This document shows positions 2,054 through 33,319 of a stretch of 33,319 nt of DNA, piece after piece. Numbering within the stretch: position 1 is the stretch's first letter; every line of letters begins with the position of its first letter. The position numbers and the translations under genes were made by a program. Under the pieces are notes generated by a model. That model had not been told where the DNA came from and searched no databases. It saw only the letters and a list, made by a program, of their open reading frames with translations. The stretch lies in the IMG/VR virus record IMGVR_UViG_3300025889_000500, positions 1-33,319 of that record. One strand, written 5' to 3'. Source of the DNA: a virus. Its lineage: Duplodnaviria > Caudoviricetes.

Positions 2054-2436
2054 TGGCTAGATTTGCAGATAGAAGTAATAAACCTCATAGAGCACCACAT
2101 ACTAAATTTTCTGGTGGTAAATATGCTTTAGCTATATCTGATCGTTCGGGTTTAGAATTTCCATATAATGAAATGGTATTTGAATGGAATGGAAGTTTCG
2201 TTCATATATCAGAATTTGAAAAAAAACAACCACAACTAGATTTAACATATTTTACAGATGCTGAATCTTTAGAAAATGCTAGACCTCAAGCTAATTTATC
2301 AGCTACAGGAGGTGTTCCAAATCAAATTACTGTAATATATCCTTCTACATCAGGATCTGTTTCTAATGTAGGTGTTGCACAAGCAAGCACAAATTTGTTA
2401 TCAACTGCTGTAGGAAGTGTTACAGTGTCTACATGA
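2053..2436 (+). CDS. Hypothetical phage protein
   Basis: 127 aa, coupled to the upstream gene (TAATG); GKYALAISDRSG..FPY..EWNG motif familiar from marine phage structural modules. Confidence 0.55.
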   Translation: MARFADRSNKPHRAPHTKFSGGKYALAISDRSGLEFPYNEMVFEWNGSFVHISEFEKKQPQLDLTYFTDAESLENARPQANLSATGGVPNQITVIYPSTSGSVSNVGVAQASTNLLSTAVGSVTVST

Positions 2437-3251
2437 TAGATAAAAAAAAATTAGGAGTTATGATCGCAACTCCTTGCTATGGCGGTCAATTAACAGAATC
2501 ATATTTACACGGTATTTTAAACGCAGTAGGTGAAGCGAGTAAAAGAGGAATACAATTACATTTAAATACTATGGGTAATGAAAGTTTAATTACTAGAGCT
2601 AGAAATACTTTGGTAACTCAATTTTTAGATGCTGATAAAAAAGATCCAAATAAATTTTCGCATTTAATGTTTATAGATAGTGATATAGGTTTTGGTGGAG
2701 AAGCTATAATGAGATTATTAGAAAGTGATTATGACGTAGCTTGTGGAATATATCCTAGAAAATCAGTAGATTGGAATACTGTTAAATCTTATGCTGAAAA
2801 AAATGATTTTGAAAATTTAGAACAAAAAGCTTTAGGGTATAATTTAAACTTTGCAAATCCTTTAAATATAGAAGTTAAAAATGGATTTACTGAAGTATTA
2901 GACGCAGCAACTGGCTTTATGTGTATTAAAAAAGAAGTATTTTATAAAATGATTGAAGCTTATCCTAATCTTAAATATACTTCTGATCAAATAATAAATG
3001 GAGAAAGATTTAGTAGTGACAATTGTTATGCATTTTTTGACTGTATTATTGATGAAAAAAGTAATAGATATCTATCAGAAGATTATGCTTTTTGCAGATT
3101 ATGGCAAAAAATCGGTGGAAAGATATATGCTGATCTACATAGTCCTCTTACGCATTATGGTACATATGCATTTAGAGGTCATGTATGGACTAAGTTTAAA
3201 ATTGAAGGAGTAGAGCCAAATGCCAATGACGTACAGCAGCCTAAAGAATGA
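2433..3251 (+). CDS. GT-A fold glycosyltransferase-like protein
   Basis: IATPCYGG, SLITRARN, DxD motif in FIDSDI, ATGFM, LSEDYAFC and terminal H-G motif. Confidence 0.75.
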   Translation: MIDKKKLGVMIATPCYGGQLTESYLHGILNAVGEASKRGIQLHLNTMGNESLITRARNTLVTQFLDADKKDPNKFSHLMFIDSDIGFGGEAIMRLLESDYDVACGIYPRKSVDWNTVKSYAEKNDFENLEQKALGYNLNFANPLNIEVKNGFTEVLDAATGFMCIKKEVFYKMIEAYPNLKYTSDQIINGERFSSDNCYAFFDCIIDEKSNRYLSEDYAFCRLWQKIGGKIYADLHSPLTHYGTYAFRGHVWTKFKIEGVEPNANDVQQPKE

Positions 3252-7751: not shown

Positions 7752-8252
7752 ATGGAAAAAAACATTTTATCAGAACAAGCCATATATTATGGTAATGTTT
7801 TAATGCCAAAAGGTTTTGAAATTGATCTTAATCAATTAAGAGCTGATATTTTACAATCAGAAATTGAAAAAAAAGATATAAAATTTTCTAAAAATTTTGA
7901 TAAATTAAATACTTTTATTAAAGATCACGTTTGTTTAAAATACGACATTAATTTAATCTATAAATCTACTTGGGGAAATTTTTATCAACCTCACACAATT
8001 ACAGAACCTTTATTACAAGTAAATCCTGTTGATTTAAAACATTCACCTGATTTTGTACTATTGTATGGCGTACAAGTTAAAAACTGTTTTATTAAAATTT
8101 ATTACGATGATAACAGAAGAAAAGGAAGAAGTTGGGAAATAGAATTATTAAATAATATGTTTATAATGTTTCCATCTACAAACATGTACACTATTAGTAA
8201 TAATACAGATAATTTAAATATCGTTAACACAATAGCATACGAATATGTTTAA
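7752..8252 (+). CDS. Degenerate 2OG-Fe(II) oxygenase-like protein
   Basis: DSBH-like pattern (WGNFY, FIMFPS), but no HxD/H and no distal His; first gene of the oxygenase array. Confidence 0.45.
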   Translation: MEKNILSEQAIYYGNVLMPKGFEIDLNQLRADILQSEIEKKDIKFSKNFDKLNTFIKDHVCLKYDINLIYKSTWGNFYQPHTITEPLLQVNPVDLKHSPDFVLLYGVQVKNCFIKIYYDDNRRKGRSWEIELLNNMFIMFPSTNMYTISNNTDNLNIVNTIAYEYV

Positions 8253-8860
8253 TGAAAACTATTAGACCTAGAAAAAATTGGAAATTTAATCCTCAAAATA
8301 TAACTGTATTAGATAATTTTTTTACTGATGAATGTCTTAAAATATTAAGATATAGAGTTCTTTATGGAAAATATTTTGATCAAAAATATGATGGTTATTT
8401 AGCTATTGATTATTTTAAAAATCAAGATTATTTAACTGATTTAATTGTTAAAGAATTAAATAAAAAAATAAAATTACCTCCTTTTCAAAGAGCTTGGAGT
8501 TTTGTTTACAACTATGAAACTAAAGGAGTTAATATTCATTGTGATCCTTCATTAATAAATTTGAATGTTTGGGTATCATCTGATAAAGGTATTAAAGATA
8601 AATCTAAAAATGGATTAAATATTTATAAAATAAAACCACCTAAAAATTGGACAAGAAATGAATGGAATAGTAATTTTACTAAATCATTAAATTATATTAA
8701 ATTAAAAAAAATAAAGCCAATTAAAATTGAATATAAAAGTAATAGGGCTGTTTTTTTTGATGGAGCTTATTTTCATAATTCAAATAATGTATCTATGAAA
8801 AAAAATTTTGAAAATAAAAGAGTAAGTTATACAATGTTATTTGGATCGCAATTACAATGA
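8252..8860 (+). CDS. 2OG-Fe(II) oxygenase superfamily protein
   Basis: IHCD, NLNVW, NRAVFFD..YFH and distal R.S (KRVSY). Confidence 0.75.
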   Translation: MKTIRPRKNWKFNPQNITVLDNFFTDECLKILRYRVLYGKYFDQKYDGYLAIDYFKNQDYLTDLIVKELNKKIKLPPFQRAWSFVYNYETKGVNIHCDPSLINLNVWVSSDKGIKDKSKNGLNIYKIKPPKNWTRNEWNSNFTKSLNYIKLKKIKPIKIEYKSNRAVFFDGAYFHNSNNVSMKKNFENKRVSYTMLFGSQLQ

Positions 8861-9489
8861 ATTTATATAACTACTATTGGTATTTTGAATCTGCTTTAAC
8901 ACCTAGATTTTGTGATGATGTAATTAAATATGGATTATCTCATTCTGAAAGTTTAGGAGTAATAGGTCCATATGATTCTAAAAAATTAACTTCTAAAGAT
9001 ATAAAAGATATAAAAAAGAAAAGAAACTCAGATTTAGTGTGGCTAACAGATAATTGGATTTATAAAGAATTACATCCTTATATTCATATAGCAAATAAAA
9101 ATGCAGGTTGGAATTTTCAGTGGGATAGAACAGAAGCTTGTCAATTTACAAAATATAAACTAAATCAATTTTATGATTGGCATTGTGATTCTTGGGATAG
9201 ACCTTATCAACGAGATAATGTTAATCATCCCGAACATGGTAAAATAAGAAAACTTTCAATAACTTGTCAATTAACAGATGGTTCAGAATATGAAGGAGGC
9301 GAATTAGAATTTGATTTTAGAAATTATTATCCAAGTAATAATGAAAAAAAAATTATAAAGTGTAAAGAAATATTACCTAAAGGTTCTATTATTGTATTTC
9401 CATCGTTTGTATGGCATAGAGTTAAACCAGTAACAAAAGGAGTAAGGTATTCATTAGTGACATGGAACTTAGGATACCCATTTAAATAA
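8857..9489 (+). CDS. 2OG-Fe(II) oxygenase, prolyl-4-hydroxylase/PKHD-like
   Basis: YDWHCD, RKLS, YEGGELEF, FPSFVWHRV.PVTKG.RYSLV.W. Confidence 0.88.
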   Translation: MNLYNYYWYFESALTPRFCDDVIKYGLSHSESLGVIGPYDSKKLTSKDIKDIKKKRNSDLVWLTDNWIYKELHPYIHIANKNAGWNFQWDRTEACQFTKYKLNQFYDWHCDSWDRPYQRDNVNHPEHGKIRKLSITCQLTDGSEYEGGELEFDFRNYYPSNNEKKIIKCKEILPKGSIIVFPSFVWHRVKPVTKGVRYSLVTWNLGYPFK

Positions 9490-9490
9490 T

Positions 9491-10111
9491 ATGTTCAAAA
9501 ATAAAAAATACGCAATTATTCGAAAAGCAATACCAAAAGATTTATGTGTTTTTATTTATAATTGTTTTTTAATGCAAAAACAAGTTTATGATACACTTAA
9601 AAAAAATAGATATTTTTCACCTTTTGAAACAATATTAGGTCATTATGAACACGAAGGAGAATTAGTACCTAATACTTATGCTCATTATGGAAATATAATT
9701 ATGGAAACATTAATGTTAAAATGTCAGCCAGTTATGGAAAAAACAACAGGGTTAAAATTATATCCTGCAAACACATATGCAAGACTTTATAAAAAAGGTG
9801 ATGATTTAAGAAGACACAAAGATAGATTTAGTTGTGAAATATCAACAACAATGTTTATTGGTGGTGATCCTTGGTCAATATATTTAGAGCCATCTGGTAA
9901 AGAAGGAATGAAAGGTATTAAAATAGATTTAAAACCAGGAGATATGTTAGTTTATTCTGGTTGCGAATTAGAACATTGGAGAGAAAAGTTTAAAGGAAAA
10001 CAATGTCTTCAAGTGTTTTTACACTATAATAATTCTAAAACTAAGGGGGCTAAAGATAATATATTTGATACTAGACCTCATTTAGGTTTACCTCATTGGT
10101 TTAAAAAATAA
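9491..10111 (+). CDS. 2OG-Fe(II) oxygenase superfamily protein
   Basis: YARLY, RHKDR.SCEIS.T, PGDM.VY.GC..EHWRE, QVFLHY. Confidence 0.75.
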   Translation: MFKNKKYAIIRKAIPKDLCVFIYNCFLMQKQVYDTLKKNRYFSPFETILGHYEHEGELVPNTYAHYGNIIMETLMLKCQPVMEKTTGLKLYPANTYARLYKKGDDLRRHKDRFSCEISTTMFIGGDPWSIYLEPSGKEGMKGIKIDLKPGDMLVYSGCELEHWREKFKGKQCLQVFLHYNNSKTKGAKDNIFDTRPHLGLPHWFKK

Positions 10112-26843: not shown

Positions 26844-27902
26844 ATGAAAGCATTAGGAACATATATATTTGCAGGAGGTTTTACTTTAGGTGTAAGAAAA
26901 CATTTTGACGTACAAGCACATTTTGAAATGAAACCTGGATTATATAAAAAAACTTTTCAAGCTAATTTTCCAAATATTCCAGTTTATGAAGGTGAAGATG
27001 AATGGCCTAGAAAAAAATATAAAGGTAAAATAGATTTTGTATATTGTAATCCACCATGTGCACCTTGGTCTAATTTAGGAAGCACTCAAAAAGGCGCACA
27101 AGCTTGGCGTAACGACCCTCGTATAGCTTGTTGGAGAAATAGTTTTAATCTATTAAAAGAATTAGAACCTAAAGCAATTGCTATTGAATCAGTACCTAGA
27201 GTTTATTCAATTAATGGTGGAAGACCTATGATTACTGAATTAAGTAAAGAAGCTATTGATTTAGGATATCAAGTAACTCATTTATTAATAGATGGTGGAT
27301 TTACTGGTTTAAATCATAGTAGAAAAAGATTTTTCTTTATAGCAACTAAATATAATTTAAATCCTAATATATTAAACTTTCAGCCATTACCTACAGCTGG
27401 TGAGGTATTAAATCAATTTAAAGAAGAACACGGATCAGACGTAGGTCATTTAATGAAATTAGGTGAAAATGAAAAACCTTATCTTAAACATTGTAAACAA
27501 GGAGAAAGTTTAAGAGTAACTTGGGAAAGATATAATCCACCTGAAACTTGGGTTAGAGGAGGAATGCGTGGAGGAGTTAAAGGTAGACCTCAGTTTATGA
27601 AATGGAGATTAAAAAACGATGCTCATATACCAGTTATTGCAGGAGGATTTTATATTCACCCTACAGAAGATAGATTATTTGGTCATAAAGAATTAGCTTA
27701 TATGGCAGGGTATCCTGTAGATTATAAATGGGAAGGTCCAGCATCTACCATAGGATCACAAATTGCAAGAGGAGTTATGCCACCTGTAGCTGAATATGTA
27801 GCAAGAATAGTTAAAAATAGTATAAGAGATAAAAATAAAAAAGAAGAAGAATTACAAATTGTAGATTTTAGAAAAGAACCTGAACAAGCAAGTTTAATAT
27901 GA
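26844..27902 (+). CDS. Atypical DNA cytosine-C5 methyltransferase-family protein
   Basis: Motif IV NPPC..WS, VI IESV, VIII HSRKR, IX HP.EDR...E...GYP; motifs I (YIFAGG) and X (QIARGV) are divergent. Confidence 0.82.
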   Translation: MKALGTYIFAGGFTLGVRKHFDVQAHFEMKPGLYKKTFQANFPNIPVYEGEDEWPRKKYKGKIDFVYCNPPCAPWSNLGSTQKGAQAWRNDPRIACWRNSFNLLKELEPKAIAIESVPRVYSINGGRPMITELSKEAIDLGYQVTHLLIDGGFTGLNHSRKRFFFIATKYNLNPNILNFQPLPTAGEVLNQFKEEHGSDVGHLMKLGENEKPYLKHCKQGESLRVTWERYNPPETWVRGGMRGGVKGRPQFMKWRLKNDAHIPVIAGGFYIHPTEDRLFGHKELAYMAGYPVDYKWEGPASTIGSQIARGVMPPVAEYVARIVKNSIRDKNKKEEELQIVDFRKEPEQASLI

Positions 27903-28333
27903 CGTATTCAGGAATATTTGATGATATGGATAAAGATACTTTGATAAAAGATATTGATGCTTTTCATAAAAAATTTGGGTTTGAAAAGAACGAAAAAGTT
28001 GGTATACCTGATAATAACGAATTAGTAAATTTTAGAACTTCTTTTTTAATGGAAGAATTAGCAGAGTACACTCAAGCAATTACTAAAAAAGATGCTGCAG
28101 GTGCTTTAGATGCTCTTGTTGATATAGTTTATATAGCTTTAGGTACAGCTTGGTTATTTAATCTTCCATTTGAAAAAGCGTGGAATGAAGTACAAAAAGC
28201 AAATATGAGTAAAATAAGAGCTAAAAGTAAATCTAAAAAAAGAGGTACAGCTTTTGATGTTATTAAACCAAAAAATTGGAAAGCTCCTGATATTGAACAA
28301 ATAATTTATGAAGAAAGAGAAAAAGAAAAATGA
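27899..28333 (+). CDS. MazG-like / all-alpha NTP pyrophosphohydrolase
   Basis: FH.KFG, EELAE, DALVD..Y, V..ANMSK, KP.NW..P. Confidence 0.85.
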   Translation: MTYSGIFDDMDKDTLIKDIDAFHKKFGFEKNEKVGIPDNNELVNFRTSFLMEELAEYTQAITKKDAAGALDALVDIVYIALGTAWLFNLPFEKAWNEVQKANMSKIRAKSKSKKRGTAFDVIKPKNWKAPDIEQIIYEEREKEK

Positions 28334-29361
28334 AAATATTAGTTACAGGATTTAATGCTTTAGCAATTGGTACTGCTAAATCACCATTGAATATTGCAAC
28401 ATCAGCTAGAATACTACCTGAAGTTTTAAGAGAACTTGGACACGAAGTAACTCAAAAAGCAATTATTCCTGGAGAAGATGTATCAATGTATGATAAAGTT
28501 TTTGTATTTGTATTTGGTCCTAATAGTCTTTCAGCTAGATACTGGTATGGTGCGGCATACACCATAATTAAAAGACCTGATGCTATAATCTCCATTGACG
28601 ATTGGCAAACTAAAGATTCAGTAAGTGGTTTTGGTACGTTTAGCCGAGGTCATTGGAGAATATGGAAAAAATTATCTAAAGCAGGTAATCCAGTAGGTAA
28701 AATATATTGGGACGAGGCTCAACCTTATAAGAAAGAAATTGAAGATTTAGTTGATACATTTGCATTTGAAAAATGGCCACATAAACTTTTAATACCAGCA
28801 TATGACGGTGGTAACTACGATGAACTTGGATTAAAAGCAAATGAAATAGTTAATTGGGATCCATCACCTTACACAAATACTTATTTAAAAAATCCGGAAG
28901 AAGGATTATTTGAAAGTCAACCATTACCAGTTGAGAATAAAGAAAAAGCTTGGATACTAGCAAGTTTAGTAAGTAAACAAGGTTGGTTAAAAAAACAAAC
29001 TTTTAATTGGCCAATTAAAACTTTTGGTAATGTAAAAGAAAAACAAACTAGATTAAAAGAACACGAACTATATCAAGAATATAGAAAAGTTTGGGGTATT
29101 ATAAGTCCTCCTCATTATCACACTATGAAAGGTAGTGGTTGGTGGAGAGTAAGATATAAAATGGCTTATGATGCTAAAAGTATTATATTAGCACATCCGG
29201 AAGAAGCTAAAATATTAGGAATAAATATTGATCATAATATTATAGAAAAAGGTAGTAATTTTGAATTAAACGAAATAATTAGTAGTCAGAACGAAATACT
29301 TAAAAATAAATTTTGGACAAAAGAAAGAACGAAAGAATTTTTTAAATGTATGCTAGAATAA
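28330..29361 (+). CDS. GT-B fold protein resembling T4 DNA beta-glucosyltransferase
   Basis: MKI start, LGHEV, DVSMYDKVFV, IDDW, KTFGNVKEKQ and RVRY; 343 aa; colinear with T4 BGT as recalled from memory. Confidence 0.6.
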   Translation: MKILVTGFNALAIGTAKSPLNIATSARILPEVLRELGHEVTQKAIIPGEDVSMYDKVFVFVFGPNSLSARYWYGAAYTIIKRPDAIISIDDWQTKDSVSGFGTFSRGHWRIWKKLSKAGNPVGKIYWDEAQPYKKEIEDLVDTFAFEKWPHKLLIPAYDGGNYDELGLKANEIVNWDPSPYTNTYLKNPEEGLFESQPLPVENKEKAWILASLVSKQGWLKKQTFNWPIKTFGNVKEKQTRLKEHELYQEYRKVWGIISPPHYHTMKGSGWWRVRYKMAYDAKSIILAHPEEAKILGINIDHNIIEKGSNFELNEIISSQNEILKNKFWTKERTKEFFKCMLE

Positions 29362-29918
29362 TAATATTTGAAGGACCAGATGGAGTAGGTAAAACTACTT
29401 TAATAAATCATTTTAAAAAAGAATTTAATAATTCATATTATATGCATTTAAGAGTGCATAAAGATATGAAGTTATGGCATACAGCTAGTATGCGATTAGC
29501 TATTAAAAAGAAAAATCAAGGGAAGTTAGTTTTATTAGATAGACATTGGCCTAGTGAACAATGTTATTCTTATATCTATCGTGATGGTCCTAGTTATAAT
29601 GCTAAATTTATTTATGATAAATTAAAATCAGAAGGTACATTATATGTATGGTGTTTACCAGAAAATATTGAAAAAGTAAAAGCTAATCATAGAATTAATA
29701 GAGAAGAAAGACATGAAGAATATTATGATATTGATAAAGTAGTAGAACTATATGATAATTACTGGCATGGCTTTGAAGATAGACAAAATACTTTATGGGA
29801 ATTAAGTCCATTAAAATTAAGAAATGATTTTATTAGGTACGATATGTTTCAAGAAGGTGATAATTTAGAAAAAGTAACAGAGAAAATAATGGATAGGAGC
29901 TTTGCATTAGGAATATGA
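29346..29918 (+). CDS. dNMP (thymidylate-kinase-like) kinase
   Basis: P-loop EGPDGVGKT; LLDRHWPSE..Y. Confidence 0.8.
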   Translation: MYARIIIFEGPDGVGKTTLINHFKKEFNNSYYMHLRVHKDMKLWHTASMRLAIKKKNQGKLVLLDRHWPSEQCYSYIYRDGPSYNAKFIYDKLKSEGTLYVWCLPENIEKVKANHRINREERHEEYYDIDKVVELYDNYWHGFEDRQNTLWELSPLKLRNDFIRYDMFQEGDNLEKVTEKIMDRSFALGI

Positions 29919-30736
29919 GTGCTTTAAATTTATATTATAAGAAAAAAATATGGGAAATTTATCATAAACCTGAGTTTGTAACTAAACCTAGAGGTTTAAA
30001 AATAGCAGAAGTATTAAATGATAGTTGGATAATTGATATGGATAATCCAATTATTTTAAATGAAGCTAGAAAATTAAGTTACGATTTTATGTTTGGTGAA
30101 GCAGCATGGATGCTTAGTGGTAAAAACGATGTAGCTACAGTATCTAAATATGCTGGTGCTATAAAAAGATTTAGCGATAATGGAATAACTTTTTTTGGAG
30201 CATATGGTCCTAAGATCATTGATCAATTACCTTATGTATTAGATATTTTACAAAATGATAAAGATACAAGACAAGCAGTATTAAATATATGGAGAGAAAA
30301 TCCTAGATCAAGTAAAGATATTCCTTGTACTTTATCTTTACAATTCTTTTTAAGATATGCTAGTGATACATTATGGCTTCATACAACTGCTACAATGAGA
30401 AGTAACGATATTTATTTAGGAACACCTTATGATAGTTTTAATTTTAGTGCTATATCTTTTTATTTAGCATTATTATTAAATGAAAGAGGTATTAATTGTA
30501 AATTAGGTAAATTAAATATACAAGCAGGTAGTCGTCATTTATACGAAACTGATTTTAAAAAAGTAGATAAAATTTTATTAAGTGAAGATATACCTGATTT
30601 TCCATATTTTTCTTTTAATGATTTAATACCTTTATATCACGGTATATCTGATAGATTTATTCCTAATTTAGAACGTGCAGCTAATAGTGGATATAAAGTT
30701 AAATATAAAGTTTTAAAAGACGCTAATGGCATATAG
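29915..30736 (+). CDS. Thymidylate synthase homologue, probable dCMP hydroxymethylase-type
   Basis: EAAW, GAYGP, TRQAV, DIPCT (C138), MRSND...GTPYD (D173), HLYE. Confidence 0.78.
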   Translation: MSALNLYYKKKIWEIYHKPEFVTKPRGLKIAEVLNDSWIIDMDNPIILNEARKLSYDFMFGEAAWMLSGKNDVATVSKYAGAIKRFSDNGITFFGAYGPKIIDQLPYVLDILQNDKDTRQAVLNIWRENPRSSKDIPCTLSLQFFLRYASDTLWLHTTATMRSNDIYLGTPYDSFNFSAISFYLALLLNERGINCKLGKLNIQAGSRHLYETDFKKVDKILLSEDIPDFPYFSFNDLIPLYHGISDRFIPNLERAANSGYKVKYKVLKDANGI

Positions 30737-31214
30737 ACTTCCTAAAGATTGGTATTTTTTAAAGATGGCACATTTAGTTTCAGAACGTGCTACTTGTACA
30801 AGACGTAAAGTAGGTTGTATTTTAATTAATTCTAAAAATCACGTAGTAGCTACAGGTTATAATGGAGTATCATCTGGTCAAGAACATTGTATAGATAACC
30901 CTTGTAAAGGAGCAGAATTAAAATCAGGACAAGGTTTAGAATTATGTGAAGCAATACACGCTGAACAAAATGCATTATTACAATGTAAAGATGTCTACGA
31001 TATAGATACTGTTTTTTGTACAGTAAGTCCTTGCATTCATTGTTTGAAATTATTATTGAATACTTCTACTAAACATATTGTATTTATGGAAAAGTATGTA
31101 GACGCAGATCCATTAGGAGAATACTGGATAAAAAATACATTAGGTAGAGGTGGTTCATGGACTTATATAAATAAGAAAGTTATACTAGATAAATGTTCAA
31201 GTTCTCTGAATTAG
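30726..31214 (+). CDS. dCMP deaminase
   Basis: RATC.RRKVG, TGYNG, HAEQNA, SPCIHC. Confidence 0.92.
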   Translation: MAYRLPKDWYFLKMAHLVSERATCTRRKVGCILINSKNHVVATGYNGVSSGQEHCIDNPCKGAELKSGQGLELCEAIHAEQNALLQCKDVYDIDTVFCTVSPCIHCLKLLLNTSTKHIVFMEKYVDADPLGEYWIKNTLGRGGSWTYINKKVILDKCSSSLN

Positions 31215-33034
31215 AAAAGTCTAGTATCATTGCTATTGATACAGAGACACACGATCCTCGTTTGAAAACTCATGGACCAGGTGGATTTAGAAAAGATGGT
31301 AAGTTAGTTGGAATATCTATAGCAACTGACTCTGGTTATAATGAATATTTTCCAATTGGTCATCAAGCTGGTGGTAATTTAGATAATAATAAAGTTATTG
31401 ATTTTTTAGATAAAATGCTAAAACTCAATAAAACTTACGTTTTTGCTAATGCTATTTATGACATGGAGTGGCTTTATTCACACGATAATAGACTGGCCTT
31501 TACTCGTAGTCATAGAATTTACGATGTACAAGGTATAGAGCATTTAATAGATGAAAATAAATTAAAATATTCATTAGATAGTTTAGCCAAAAGATATTTA
31601 AAAAAATCTAAATATGAAGTTGAATTAGGAAAAGCAGTTTTAGCAGAGTTTGGTAAACGTGCTAAAGTAAAAGAAAGCTTATGGAGATTACACGCAAACT
31701 TTGTATCTGAGTATGCTAAAGAAGACGCATTACTTACTTTACAAATATTTCAAAAACAACAAGAAATAATTGATAAGCAAGAAATAAGAAACATAGTTGA
31801 ATTTGAATCAAGACTTATACCATTACTATTTGAAATTCGTAAGCGAGGAGTAAGAATTAATATTAATAAAGCAGAAGAACTGTATGATATGCTTGAAAAA
31901 AAACAAGTTGAAGTGCAAGAAAGACTAAATAAACTTGGAGGAGATGAAGTTAATGTATGGGCAAACGCTTCATTAAAACAAGCATATGATAAAAATAAGA
32001 TTAATTATAATTACACCGCAAAAGGTATGGCGTCTTTCACTGCAAGTTGGCTTGAAAGTCAAGTGGATGATGTCTCTAAAAGTATCTTAGCAGTTAGAAA
32101 GTTAGACAAGATAAGAAATACATTTATTAAAAATATGATTCTAGAGAAAGCTGTAAGTGGTAGGATACATTGTAATTTTAATCCACATGGAACTGTTACA
32201 GGTAGATTTAGCTCTAACTATCCTAATCTACAACAAGTACCTGCAAAAGACCCTGAACTTGGTCCAATGATCAGAAGTTTATTTATACCAGAAGAAGAAT
32301 CAGAATGGGTTGTATCAGATTATTCTCAACAAGAACCTAGAGTATTAGTCCACTATGCTAGTTTAAAAAATATGAAAACTGCTTTAGCTGCTAGAGATCA
32401 ATTTAATAATAACGATGATACTGACTTTCATCAAATGGTAGCTGATATGGCAAATATACCTAGAAAACAAGCTAAAACTATTAACTTAGGTTTATTTTAT
32501 GGAATGGGTAATAAAAAATTAGCTGCAGAATTAGGACTAGATATGGATGCTGCATATGATCTTTTTAATAAGTATCATTCTAAAGTACCGTTTGTAAAAG
32601 AATTATCTAAACAAGTATCACATGTAGCTAGTACAAGAGGTTATATAAAAACTTTATTAGGACGTAAAAGAAGGTTTGATTTATGGGAACCTAGAGATAG
32701 TTGGGGAGAAAAAGCTGTATCATTATCAGAAGCTTATGAAAAATATCCAAAACAAGAATTAAAAAGAGCAATGACTCATACAGGATTAAACGCTTTAATA
32801 CAAGGAAGCTCTGCGGATATTACAAAAGCAGCAATGTTAAAAATATGGGATAGTGGTTTAATGGACGAGATTGATATTAAATTAACTATACACGATGAAT
32901 TAGATTTTTCTATACCTCATACTAAACAAAAATGTTTAGACGAAGCTATACAAATGATGAAAAATGCTGTAAAACTTAACGTACCATTAAAGGTAGACGT
33001 TGAGAAAGGAGATAGCTGGGGTACAGCAAAATAA
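31193..33034 (+). CDS. polA: Family A DNA polymerase with 3'-5' exonuclease domain
   Basis: IDTET, TGRFSS..PNLQQ, DYSQQEPR (motif A), AKTINLGLFYG (motif B), IHDEL (motif C). Confidence 0.96.
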   Translation: MFKFSELEKSSIIAIDTETHDPRLKTHGPGGFRKDGKLVGISIATDSGYNEYFPIGHQAGGNLDNNKVIDFLDKMLKLNKTYVFANAIYDMEWLYSHDNRLAFTRSHRIYDVQGIEHLIDENKLKYSLDSLAKRYLKKSKYEVELGKAVLAEFGKRAKVKESLWRLHANFVSEYAKEDALLTLQIFQKQQEIIDKQEIRNIVEFESRLIPLLFEIRKRGVRININKAEELYDMLEKKQVEVQERLNKLGGDEVNVWANASLKQAYDKNKINYNYTAKGMASFTASWLESQVDDVSKSILAVRKLDKIRNTFIKNMILEKAVSGRIHCNFNPHGTVTGRFSSNYPNLQQVPAKDPELGPMIRSLFIPEEESEWVVSDYSQQEPRVLVHYASLKNMKTALAARDQFNNNDDTDFHQMVADMANIPRKQAKTINLGLFYGMGNKKLAAELGLDMDAAYDLFNKYHSKVPFVKELSKQVSHVASTRGYIKTLLGRKRRFDLWEPRDSWGEKAVSLSEAYEKYPKQELKRAMTHTGLNALIQGSSADITKAAMLKIWDSGLMDEIDIKLTIHDELDFSIPHTKQKCLDEAIQMMKNAVKLNVPLKVDVEKGDSWGTAK

Positions 33035-33319
33035 ATGAATATTGGTTTTTTAGGATTAGGTAAACTAGGATTACCTGTAGCTCTTGCAATTGAAGATAAA
33101 GGACATAAAGTTATTGGTACAGATATTAATGAAACAACTTTAAGAAATATAAGATTTAAAACACTGAATTATAAAGAAAAAGGTGCTAATGATCTACTAA
33201 AAAATTCTAAATTAGAATTAAAAAATATTAGCGAAATAGTATCTGAATCTGATATAATATTTGTTCCAATTCAAACTCCTCACGAAGAAAAGTATGAAGG
33301 TATAACTAGAATACCAGAT
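33035..33319 (+). CDS. UDP-glucose/GDP-mannose dehydrogenase family, N-terminal part (truncated by window end)
   Basis: Hand translation MNIGFLGLGKLGLPVALAIEDKGHKVIGTDIN...E.G...SDIIFVPIQTP; Rossmann GxGxxG, GxD and TP motifs; starts 1 nt after the polA stop; not in the ORF track. Confidence 0.85.
   Translation, partial: MNIGFLGLGKLGLPVALAIEDKGHKVIGTDINETTLRNIRFKTLNYKEKGANDLLKNSKLELKNISEIVSESDIIFVPIQTPHEEKYEGITRIPD

Follow-up and report, generated by a model that had tools for sequence, protein, structure and literature searches.

The window, by which is meant the whole 33,319-nt stretch of DNA that was analysed, contains a tight run of genes in which an uninterrupted open reading frame of 343 aa at 28330..29361 (+) overlaps its neighbours. 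The remainder of the window consists of podovirus-type structural and replication genes. The genes of the run are, in order:

26844..27902, + strand, C5-cytosine-methyltransferase-fold (C5-MT-like) protein with a catalytic Cys (NPPC), Arg309 at the position of CmoX Arg350 and SAM motif I altered to YIFAGG
27899..28333, + strand, MazG/PRA-PH-like nucleotide pyrophosphohydrolase, predicted to remove dCTP
28330..29361, + strand, glycosyltransferase of the GT-B fold resembling T4 beta-glucosyltransferase (BGT), PHROG 14998, with predicted catalytic base D91 and conserved E244, R273 and R275
29346..29918, + strand, thymidylate-kinase-like nucleotide kinase, predicted to act on hydroxymethyl-dCMP (hm-dCMP)
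29915..30736, + strand, thymidylate synthase (TS) homologue with a dCMP-hydroxymethylase signature, closest solved relative MilA
30726..31214, + strand, dCMP deaminase
31193..33034, + strand, family A DNA polymerase (PolA)
33035..33319, + strand, UDP-glucose/GDP-mannose dehydrogenase family gene (UGDH), start only, at the window end

Elsewhere in the window, a glycosyltransferase-like gene that appears GT-A-like (2433-3251; phrog_1574, weak phrog_34859) lies amid virion genes, and four small genes stand behind the tail fibres (7752-10111), two of which matched PHROGs labelled 2OG-Fe(II) oxygenase or 'ferrochelatase'.

The preliminary description had read the 343-aa product as a distant BGT. 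The blocks on which it relied, DVSMYDKVFV, IDDW (D90/D91), IKTFGNVKEKQ and RVRYKMAYDAKSIILAHPEE, were all found in the translation, with the codon of F232 in IKTFGNVKEKQ beginning at 29023 as given, and the T4 BGT blocks that it cited were confirmed in T4 b-gt as translated in GenBank (351 aa). The colinear blocks are present, but in pairwise comparison they do not exceed chance (best BLASTP piece E 0.18; family profile against a single BGT sequence, probability 9.6-25.6). The likeness to GT-B enzymes and BGT was borne out by structure searches and by profile-profile alignment using HHalign. The AF2 model was built from an alignment of 38 sequences (pLDDT 87.7), and two Rossmann-like domains span the whole chain of this predicted model, which is the GT-B arrangement. 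The comparison that had been proposed, AlphaFold plus Foldseek against T4 BGT, ranked T4 BGT (1j39) first with E 8e-7 and TM 0.58, and the other GT-B matches listed were mostly at TM 0.34-0.49. VIA gave BGT (Z 17.8, rmsd 3.7, 281 aligned), then SenB (Z 16.6) and alpha-GT (Z 14.8), and VIA against 48,161 representatives again gave BGT first (Z 16.6, rmsd 3.6, 277 aligned), with glycogen synthase next (Z 15.5). T4 BGT was the top solved structure in three structure searches; because its Z margin over GT-B enzymes that do not act on DNA is about 1, the GT-B assignment is firm and the likeness to BGT only moderate.

HHalign of 121 family members against 40 BGT-family sequences gave a probability of 91.3% (E 9.5e-7) over 112 C-terminal columns, and a second alignment with 157 sequences gave 70.2% across 289 columns. 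As controls, reversing the BGT alignment lowered this to 0.22, and none of the column shuffles exceeded 0.19 (20/20). In the profile alignment D90 corresponds to T99, D91 to D100, R275 to R269 and M278 to E272, which is the register that had been proposed for RVWE against RYKM. The Asp expected at the BGT catalytic position is D91, conserved at 99%, and its pairing with D100 lies in the low-confidence N-terminal part of the alignment. Of the BGT invariant residues, R269 is kept (R275) and E272, which we take to contact the UDP ribose and not the sugar, is lost (M278). The BGT R191/R195 motif (GGSFR) falls in a poorly aligned region, with no clear counterpart in the sequence-profile alignment, and the loop that corresponds to BGT 257-267 is completely different. 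D100 is described as the catalytic base of T4 BGT (bioRxiv 10.1101/2023.12.21.572611).

PF09198 was found neither in the window protein (Pfam, E ≤ 0.05) nor in the 121 family members (E ≤ 0.1), Pfam and NCBIfam gave no match for the window transferase, and PDB sequence searches using the window protein and two family profiles gave no real match. T4 BGT (PF09198; PDB 1j39, 1nzd) and the window family share the full-length GT-B fold, a similar size, an Asp at D100, an Arg at R269 and linkage to a dCMP hydroxymethylase. They are 15-17% identical, and the window family, unlike T4 BGT, has no PF09198 match and no Glu272, but a conserved WWRxR loop, E244, E306 and Q320, adjacent sugar-supply genes and fusions to C5-MT-like domains. 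The 28330..29361 product is placed outside PF09198 but is BGT-like by fold; action of the BGT type is predicted, and the transferase is probably inverting.

PHROG 14998, listed as of unknown function, was the sole library match of the window protein. The profile search returned 850 clusters (50% identity) at a threshold of E ≤ 1e-3, of which 709 also passed E ≤ 1e-10; the best 150 of the 850 were examined. The family is far more diverse than the return of a BGT search (42 proteins against 709 clusters, the search types being different). In 157 aligned sequences, conservation was 99% for D91, 86% for D90, 98% for E244, 99% for R273, 100% for R275, 98% for E306 and 99% for Q320. E244 was considered as a candidate stand-in for ribose or base binding. 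Using tblastn, 43 phage records were found, 42 of which cover at least 80% of the query, and some actinophage records already annotate family members as 'glycosyltransferase'. In a narrow test of bacterial and archaeal genomes using one sub-alignment motif, 7 pattern matches were obtained and 0 were confirmed. Among the publications listed in the literature search, none was seen to name the PHROG 14998 family; a 2013 survey of phage DNA-modifying enzymes by Iyer et al. may already mention it. Two paralogues of the transferase occur in actinophage-type loci (L005:7992-11137, L006:8001-12010, L166-L187), and partial loss of the D91-W92 and WWRxR motifs in the second suggests a second-sugar enzyme or an inactive partner.

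Gene context was assessed in a pool of 210 loci. Besides the window it takes in 7 GenBank records and the IMG/VR loci that four motif scans yielded, two of these scans contributing the best 80 of 172 and the best 80 of 177. The T4 control was removed, as were 16 duplicates, and the 210 loci are neither independent nor unbiased. A TS homologue lies within 10 kb in 153/210 loci, TET/JBP in 15/210 and both in 0/210. Asp occupies the positions of ThyA L143 and N177 in 148 of the 153 TS homologues; 3 of the others are truncated and 2 differ. According to the description in PMC13326640, an acidic residue at L143 with Asp at N177 marks a dCMP hydroxymethylase and D169N a hydroxylase. The window TS homologue (DIPCT / RSND / GTPYD) carries the hydroxymethylase marks, with Asp at both positions and Asp169 retained, and MilA is its closest solved relative at E 1e-20. 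The acceptor is argued mainly from this tie to two unrelated hydroxymethyl-pyrimidine sources, and the transferase is very probably a DNA hydroxymethyl-pyrimidine glycosyltransferase. Its likely role is the inverting glycosylation of hydroxymethylcytosine (hmC) in DNA, with base flipping and a DNA acceptor both predicted.

The acceptor would instead be hydroxymethyluracil (hmU) if the adjacent dCMP deaminase converted hm-dCMP and thymine were replaced in a base-J-like manner. In the window the deaminase gene does come next after the TS homologue, and it is present in 90/210 loci; thymine oxidation is also possible in the TET/JBP-linked members, but the Asp177 signature of 148/153 TS homologues and the many loci with TS and no deaminase make hmU very unlikely. 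T4 also combines hmC with a deaminase. That this GT-B enzyme acts on something other than DNA, such as a free nucleotide, a small molecule, the capsid or the cell surface, is highly improbable: SenB, glycogen synthase and BshA come within 1-2 Z units of BGT, and the nucleotide or DNA level of arabinosylation is not settled in the literature as PMC13326640 presents it, but the two linked hydroxymethyl-pyrimidine sources are unrelated and mutually exclusive, TET/JBP acts on DNA and the transferase is fused to DNA-acting domains. In phage C48C1, TET/JBP, transferase and UDP-galactopyranose mutase genes stand in a row (L004:6586-10033). The same three genes occur in 14 IMG/VR loci, and in these as in C48C1 the acceptor could be hmU or hmC.

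For the donor, the preliminary description had taken the missing Glu as a hint of an acidic sugar. This was ruled out as a sign, since the loss is common to the family, including members beside UDP-galactopyranose mutase; position 278 is variable in the 157 sequences, with Glu outside its five commonest residues. For the window clade an acidic sugar nevertheless stays plausible as donor, because of the UDP-glucose dehydrogenase gene behind the polymerase. Within 10 kb, sugar-supply genes at the 210 loci were UDP-galactopyranose mutase (73), NAD-dependent epimerase family (67) and UGDH (26), with at least one type in 112/210. None of the three lies within 10 kb in 98/210, which would allow for host donors in part of the family, and the variation of the sugar-making neighbours across the family would point to several DNA sugar coats.

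The window clade comprises 23 sequences with UGDH, usually followed by NadE, and UGDH is complete in relatives (420-428 aa). In a sister clade of 12 sequences, at about 50% identity, a UXS-type enzyme takes the place of UGDH; its motifs are presumably those of a UDP-xylose synthase, and its NCBIfam matches were all below the cut-off. UGDH was absent from 4/4 sister-clade genomes of 96-100% completeness, and an epimerase-family gene, not of UXS type, was found in 1/4 genomes of the UGDH clade, the other three being 76-85% complete. Both clades point at UDP-glucuronate (UDP-GlcA); in the window's case the simplest candidate donor is UDP-GlcA itself, followed by UDP-xylose. If the enzyme is a DNA hydroxymethyl-pyrimidine glycosyltransferase, a donor from the UDP-GlcA node is likely. 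Residue 27 is R/K in 23/23 UGDH-clade and N in 12/12 UXS-clade sequences, one of 20 fixed differences, and from these sequences R27 is a candidate carboxylate contact. GDP-mannose or another NDP-sugar is a possible alternative substrate of the dehydrogenase (E 9e-30 vs 6e-25). A hexuronic acid (HexA) on hmC has precedent in the systems described in bioRxiv 10.1101/2023.12.21.572611. NadE (NAD synthetase, above the NCBIfam cut-off) lies directly behind UGDH at L008:15949-16719 and 20 other loci. It may be there to provide NAD+; amidation of a uronic acid is another possible role.

With the same enzyme and acceptor, the donor might be UDP-glucose or another host sugar, and UGDH unrelated to DNA; its product could instead serve the GT-A-like gene at 2433-3251. 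That second glycosyltransferase-like gene, the 38 loci with kinase and TS only and 18 with TS only that have no sugar-supply gene within 10 kb, and the adjacency of UGDH to NadE, a general auxiliary gene, would all fit a host donor. We regard a host donor as rather unlikely, since between the sister clades one UDP-GlcA-node enzyme is swapped for another in the same cluster, and the loop at BGT 257-267 is wholly different.

The upstream C5-MT-like protein (26844-27902) has the C5-MT fold with catalytic Cys, Glu and RxR motifs, YIFAGG at motif I and an Arg replacing Asn in motif X. The best PDB match of its profile was CmoX, narrowly (63 vs 61 bits for HaeIII), and with Foldseek CmoX was only ninth. 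R309 aligns to R350 of CmoX (8yf3), and the column has Arg or Lys in 84/96 aligned neighbours and Gln in 10 of T4-like type. CmoA was found in 0/5 related genomes, 3 of them at least 90% complete, and the C5-MT-like protein is therefore not a clean CmoX; we take CmoA near CmoX to be typical, not universal. CmoX Arg350 is reported to bind carboxy-SAM (PMC12783734). As described there, CmoX of phage S-B43 shares the C5-MT fold, the catalytic Cys and the Arg at position 350, and differs in having SPPC where the window protein has NPPC, in motif I, in CmoA (not found in the 5 genomes) and in its partner, which is an amide ligase and not a glycosyltransferase.

Of the 30 longest proteins scanned, 15 join a C5-MT-like domain to the transferase, 3 of these together with UDG; by profile the fusion is seen in 16/157 representatives, and it occurs in 4/210 loci. 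In three fusions the UDG domain lies between the two, and some relatives carry an intein. Both the fusions and the Arg or Lys at CmoX R350 would suit a two-step unit on DNA in which the CmoX-like neighbour alters a base that then becomes the real acceptor of the transferase. Such an acceptor is very unlikely, since 128/210 loci have no C5-MT-like gene within 10 kb, which also means that it is not needed for the transferase, CmoA was absent in 5/5 genomes searched, and C5 would be blocked if hmC replaces all C. More speculatively, the CmoX-like neighbour, with its cofactor-site Arg and rebuilt SAM motif, and the transferase might together form a two-enzyme unit, fused in many phages, for an undescribed cytosine modification, in which non-methyl chemistry by a C5-MT fold on an hmC genome is coupled to uronic acid, xylose or galactofuranose glycosylation; we think this rather unlikely, and the fused CmoX-like domain is an enzymology question of interest. 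A class I SAM methyltransferase gene stands just before the C5-MT-like gene in 10 loci of the UXS-type clade (L041:7908-8576), and such a domain is fused to the transferase C-terminus in P0101 and P0117, with possible sugar O-methylation.

The reading we favour is that the predicted GT-B enzyme transfers a UDP-glucuronate-derived sugar onto hmC in the phage's own DNA, and it is on balance probable. The analysis itself shows the predicted fold, the residue correspondence, the order of the genes and the linkage across the family, and from them we infer the enzyme steps. The MazG-like enzyme would drain dCTP, the TS homologue would make hm-dCMP, the kinase and PolA would place it into DNA and the dCMP deaminase would feed dTMP synthesis. 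The transferase would then flip the base out of DNA; D91 would take the proton from the 5-hydroxymethyl group, which would attack the donor with inversion, and R273/R275 would hold the donor diphosphate. The donor, either UDP-GlcA or UDP-xylose derived from it, would come from the phage UDP-glucose dehydrogenase using NAD+ provided by NadE, and the DNA sugar would likely protect from host nucleases.

Sugar-modified hmC is an already known kind of system. GT53, GT66 and GT94, as described by Pyle et al. (bioRxiv 10.1101/2023.12.21.572611) and compared here by description, share a BGT-like fold, non-glucose sugars on hmC and partner sugar-supply enzymes, and differ in being TET/C5-MT linked, GT53 adding heptose and GT94 Kdo, with HexA enzymes in the epimerase subclass. 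The arabinosyl/galactosyl 5-hydroxycytosine systems of RB69, DLP3 and RL38J1, in the account of PMC13326640, share a TS homologue, kinase, transferase and phage-made donor (in RL38J1 also UDP-galactopyranose mutase, as in family loci), but carry D169N where the window TS retains Asp169. The transferase family had no sequence match to T4 alpha-GT, Rgz1 gp32, RL38J1 gp215 or RB69 gp46/47, the last two reaching E 0.03-0.2 against the family profile. What is new is the structural test, the family breadth, the donor swapping between clades, the CmoX-like fusion and what is predicted for phages in culture. A large unannotated phage family thereby gains a fold assignment, together with a likely pathway and a residue that is likely catalytic.

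In the cultured Aeromonas phage 25 and Erwinia FBB1, a T4-gp42-like enzyme is present and the transferase gene adjoins UDP-galactopyranose mutase. Pfam detected an alpha- or beta-GT in 0/4 phages tested, these two included, with the T4 control positive. Galactofuranosyl-hmC is predicted for both phages, each of which has a hydroxymethylase and no known glucosyltransferase, and hmC glycosyltransferases with other donors could serve for 5hmC labelling, as BGT does. In Morganella phage Rgz1 (L001:7001-8068) a family member lies inside the arabinosyl-hydroxycytosine (D169N) cluster, between arabinose-5-phosphate isomerase and a nucleotidyltransferase, and is a candidate alternative second arabinosyltransferase.
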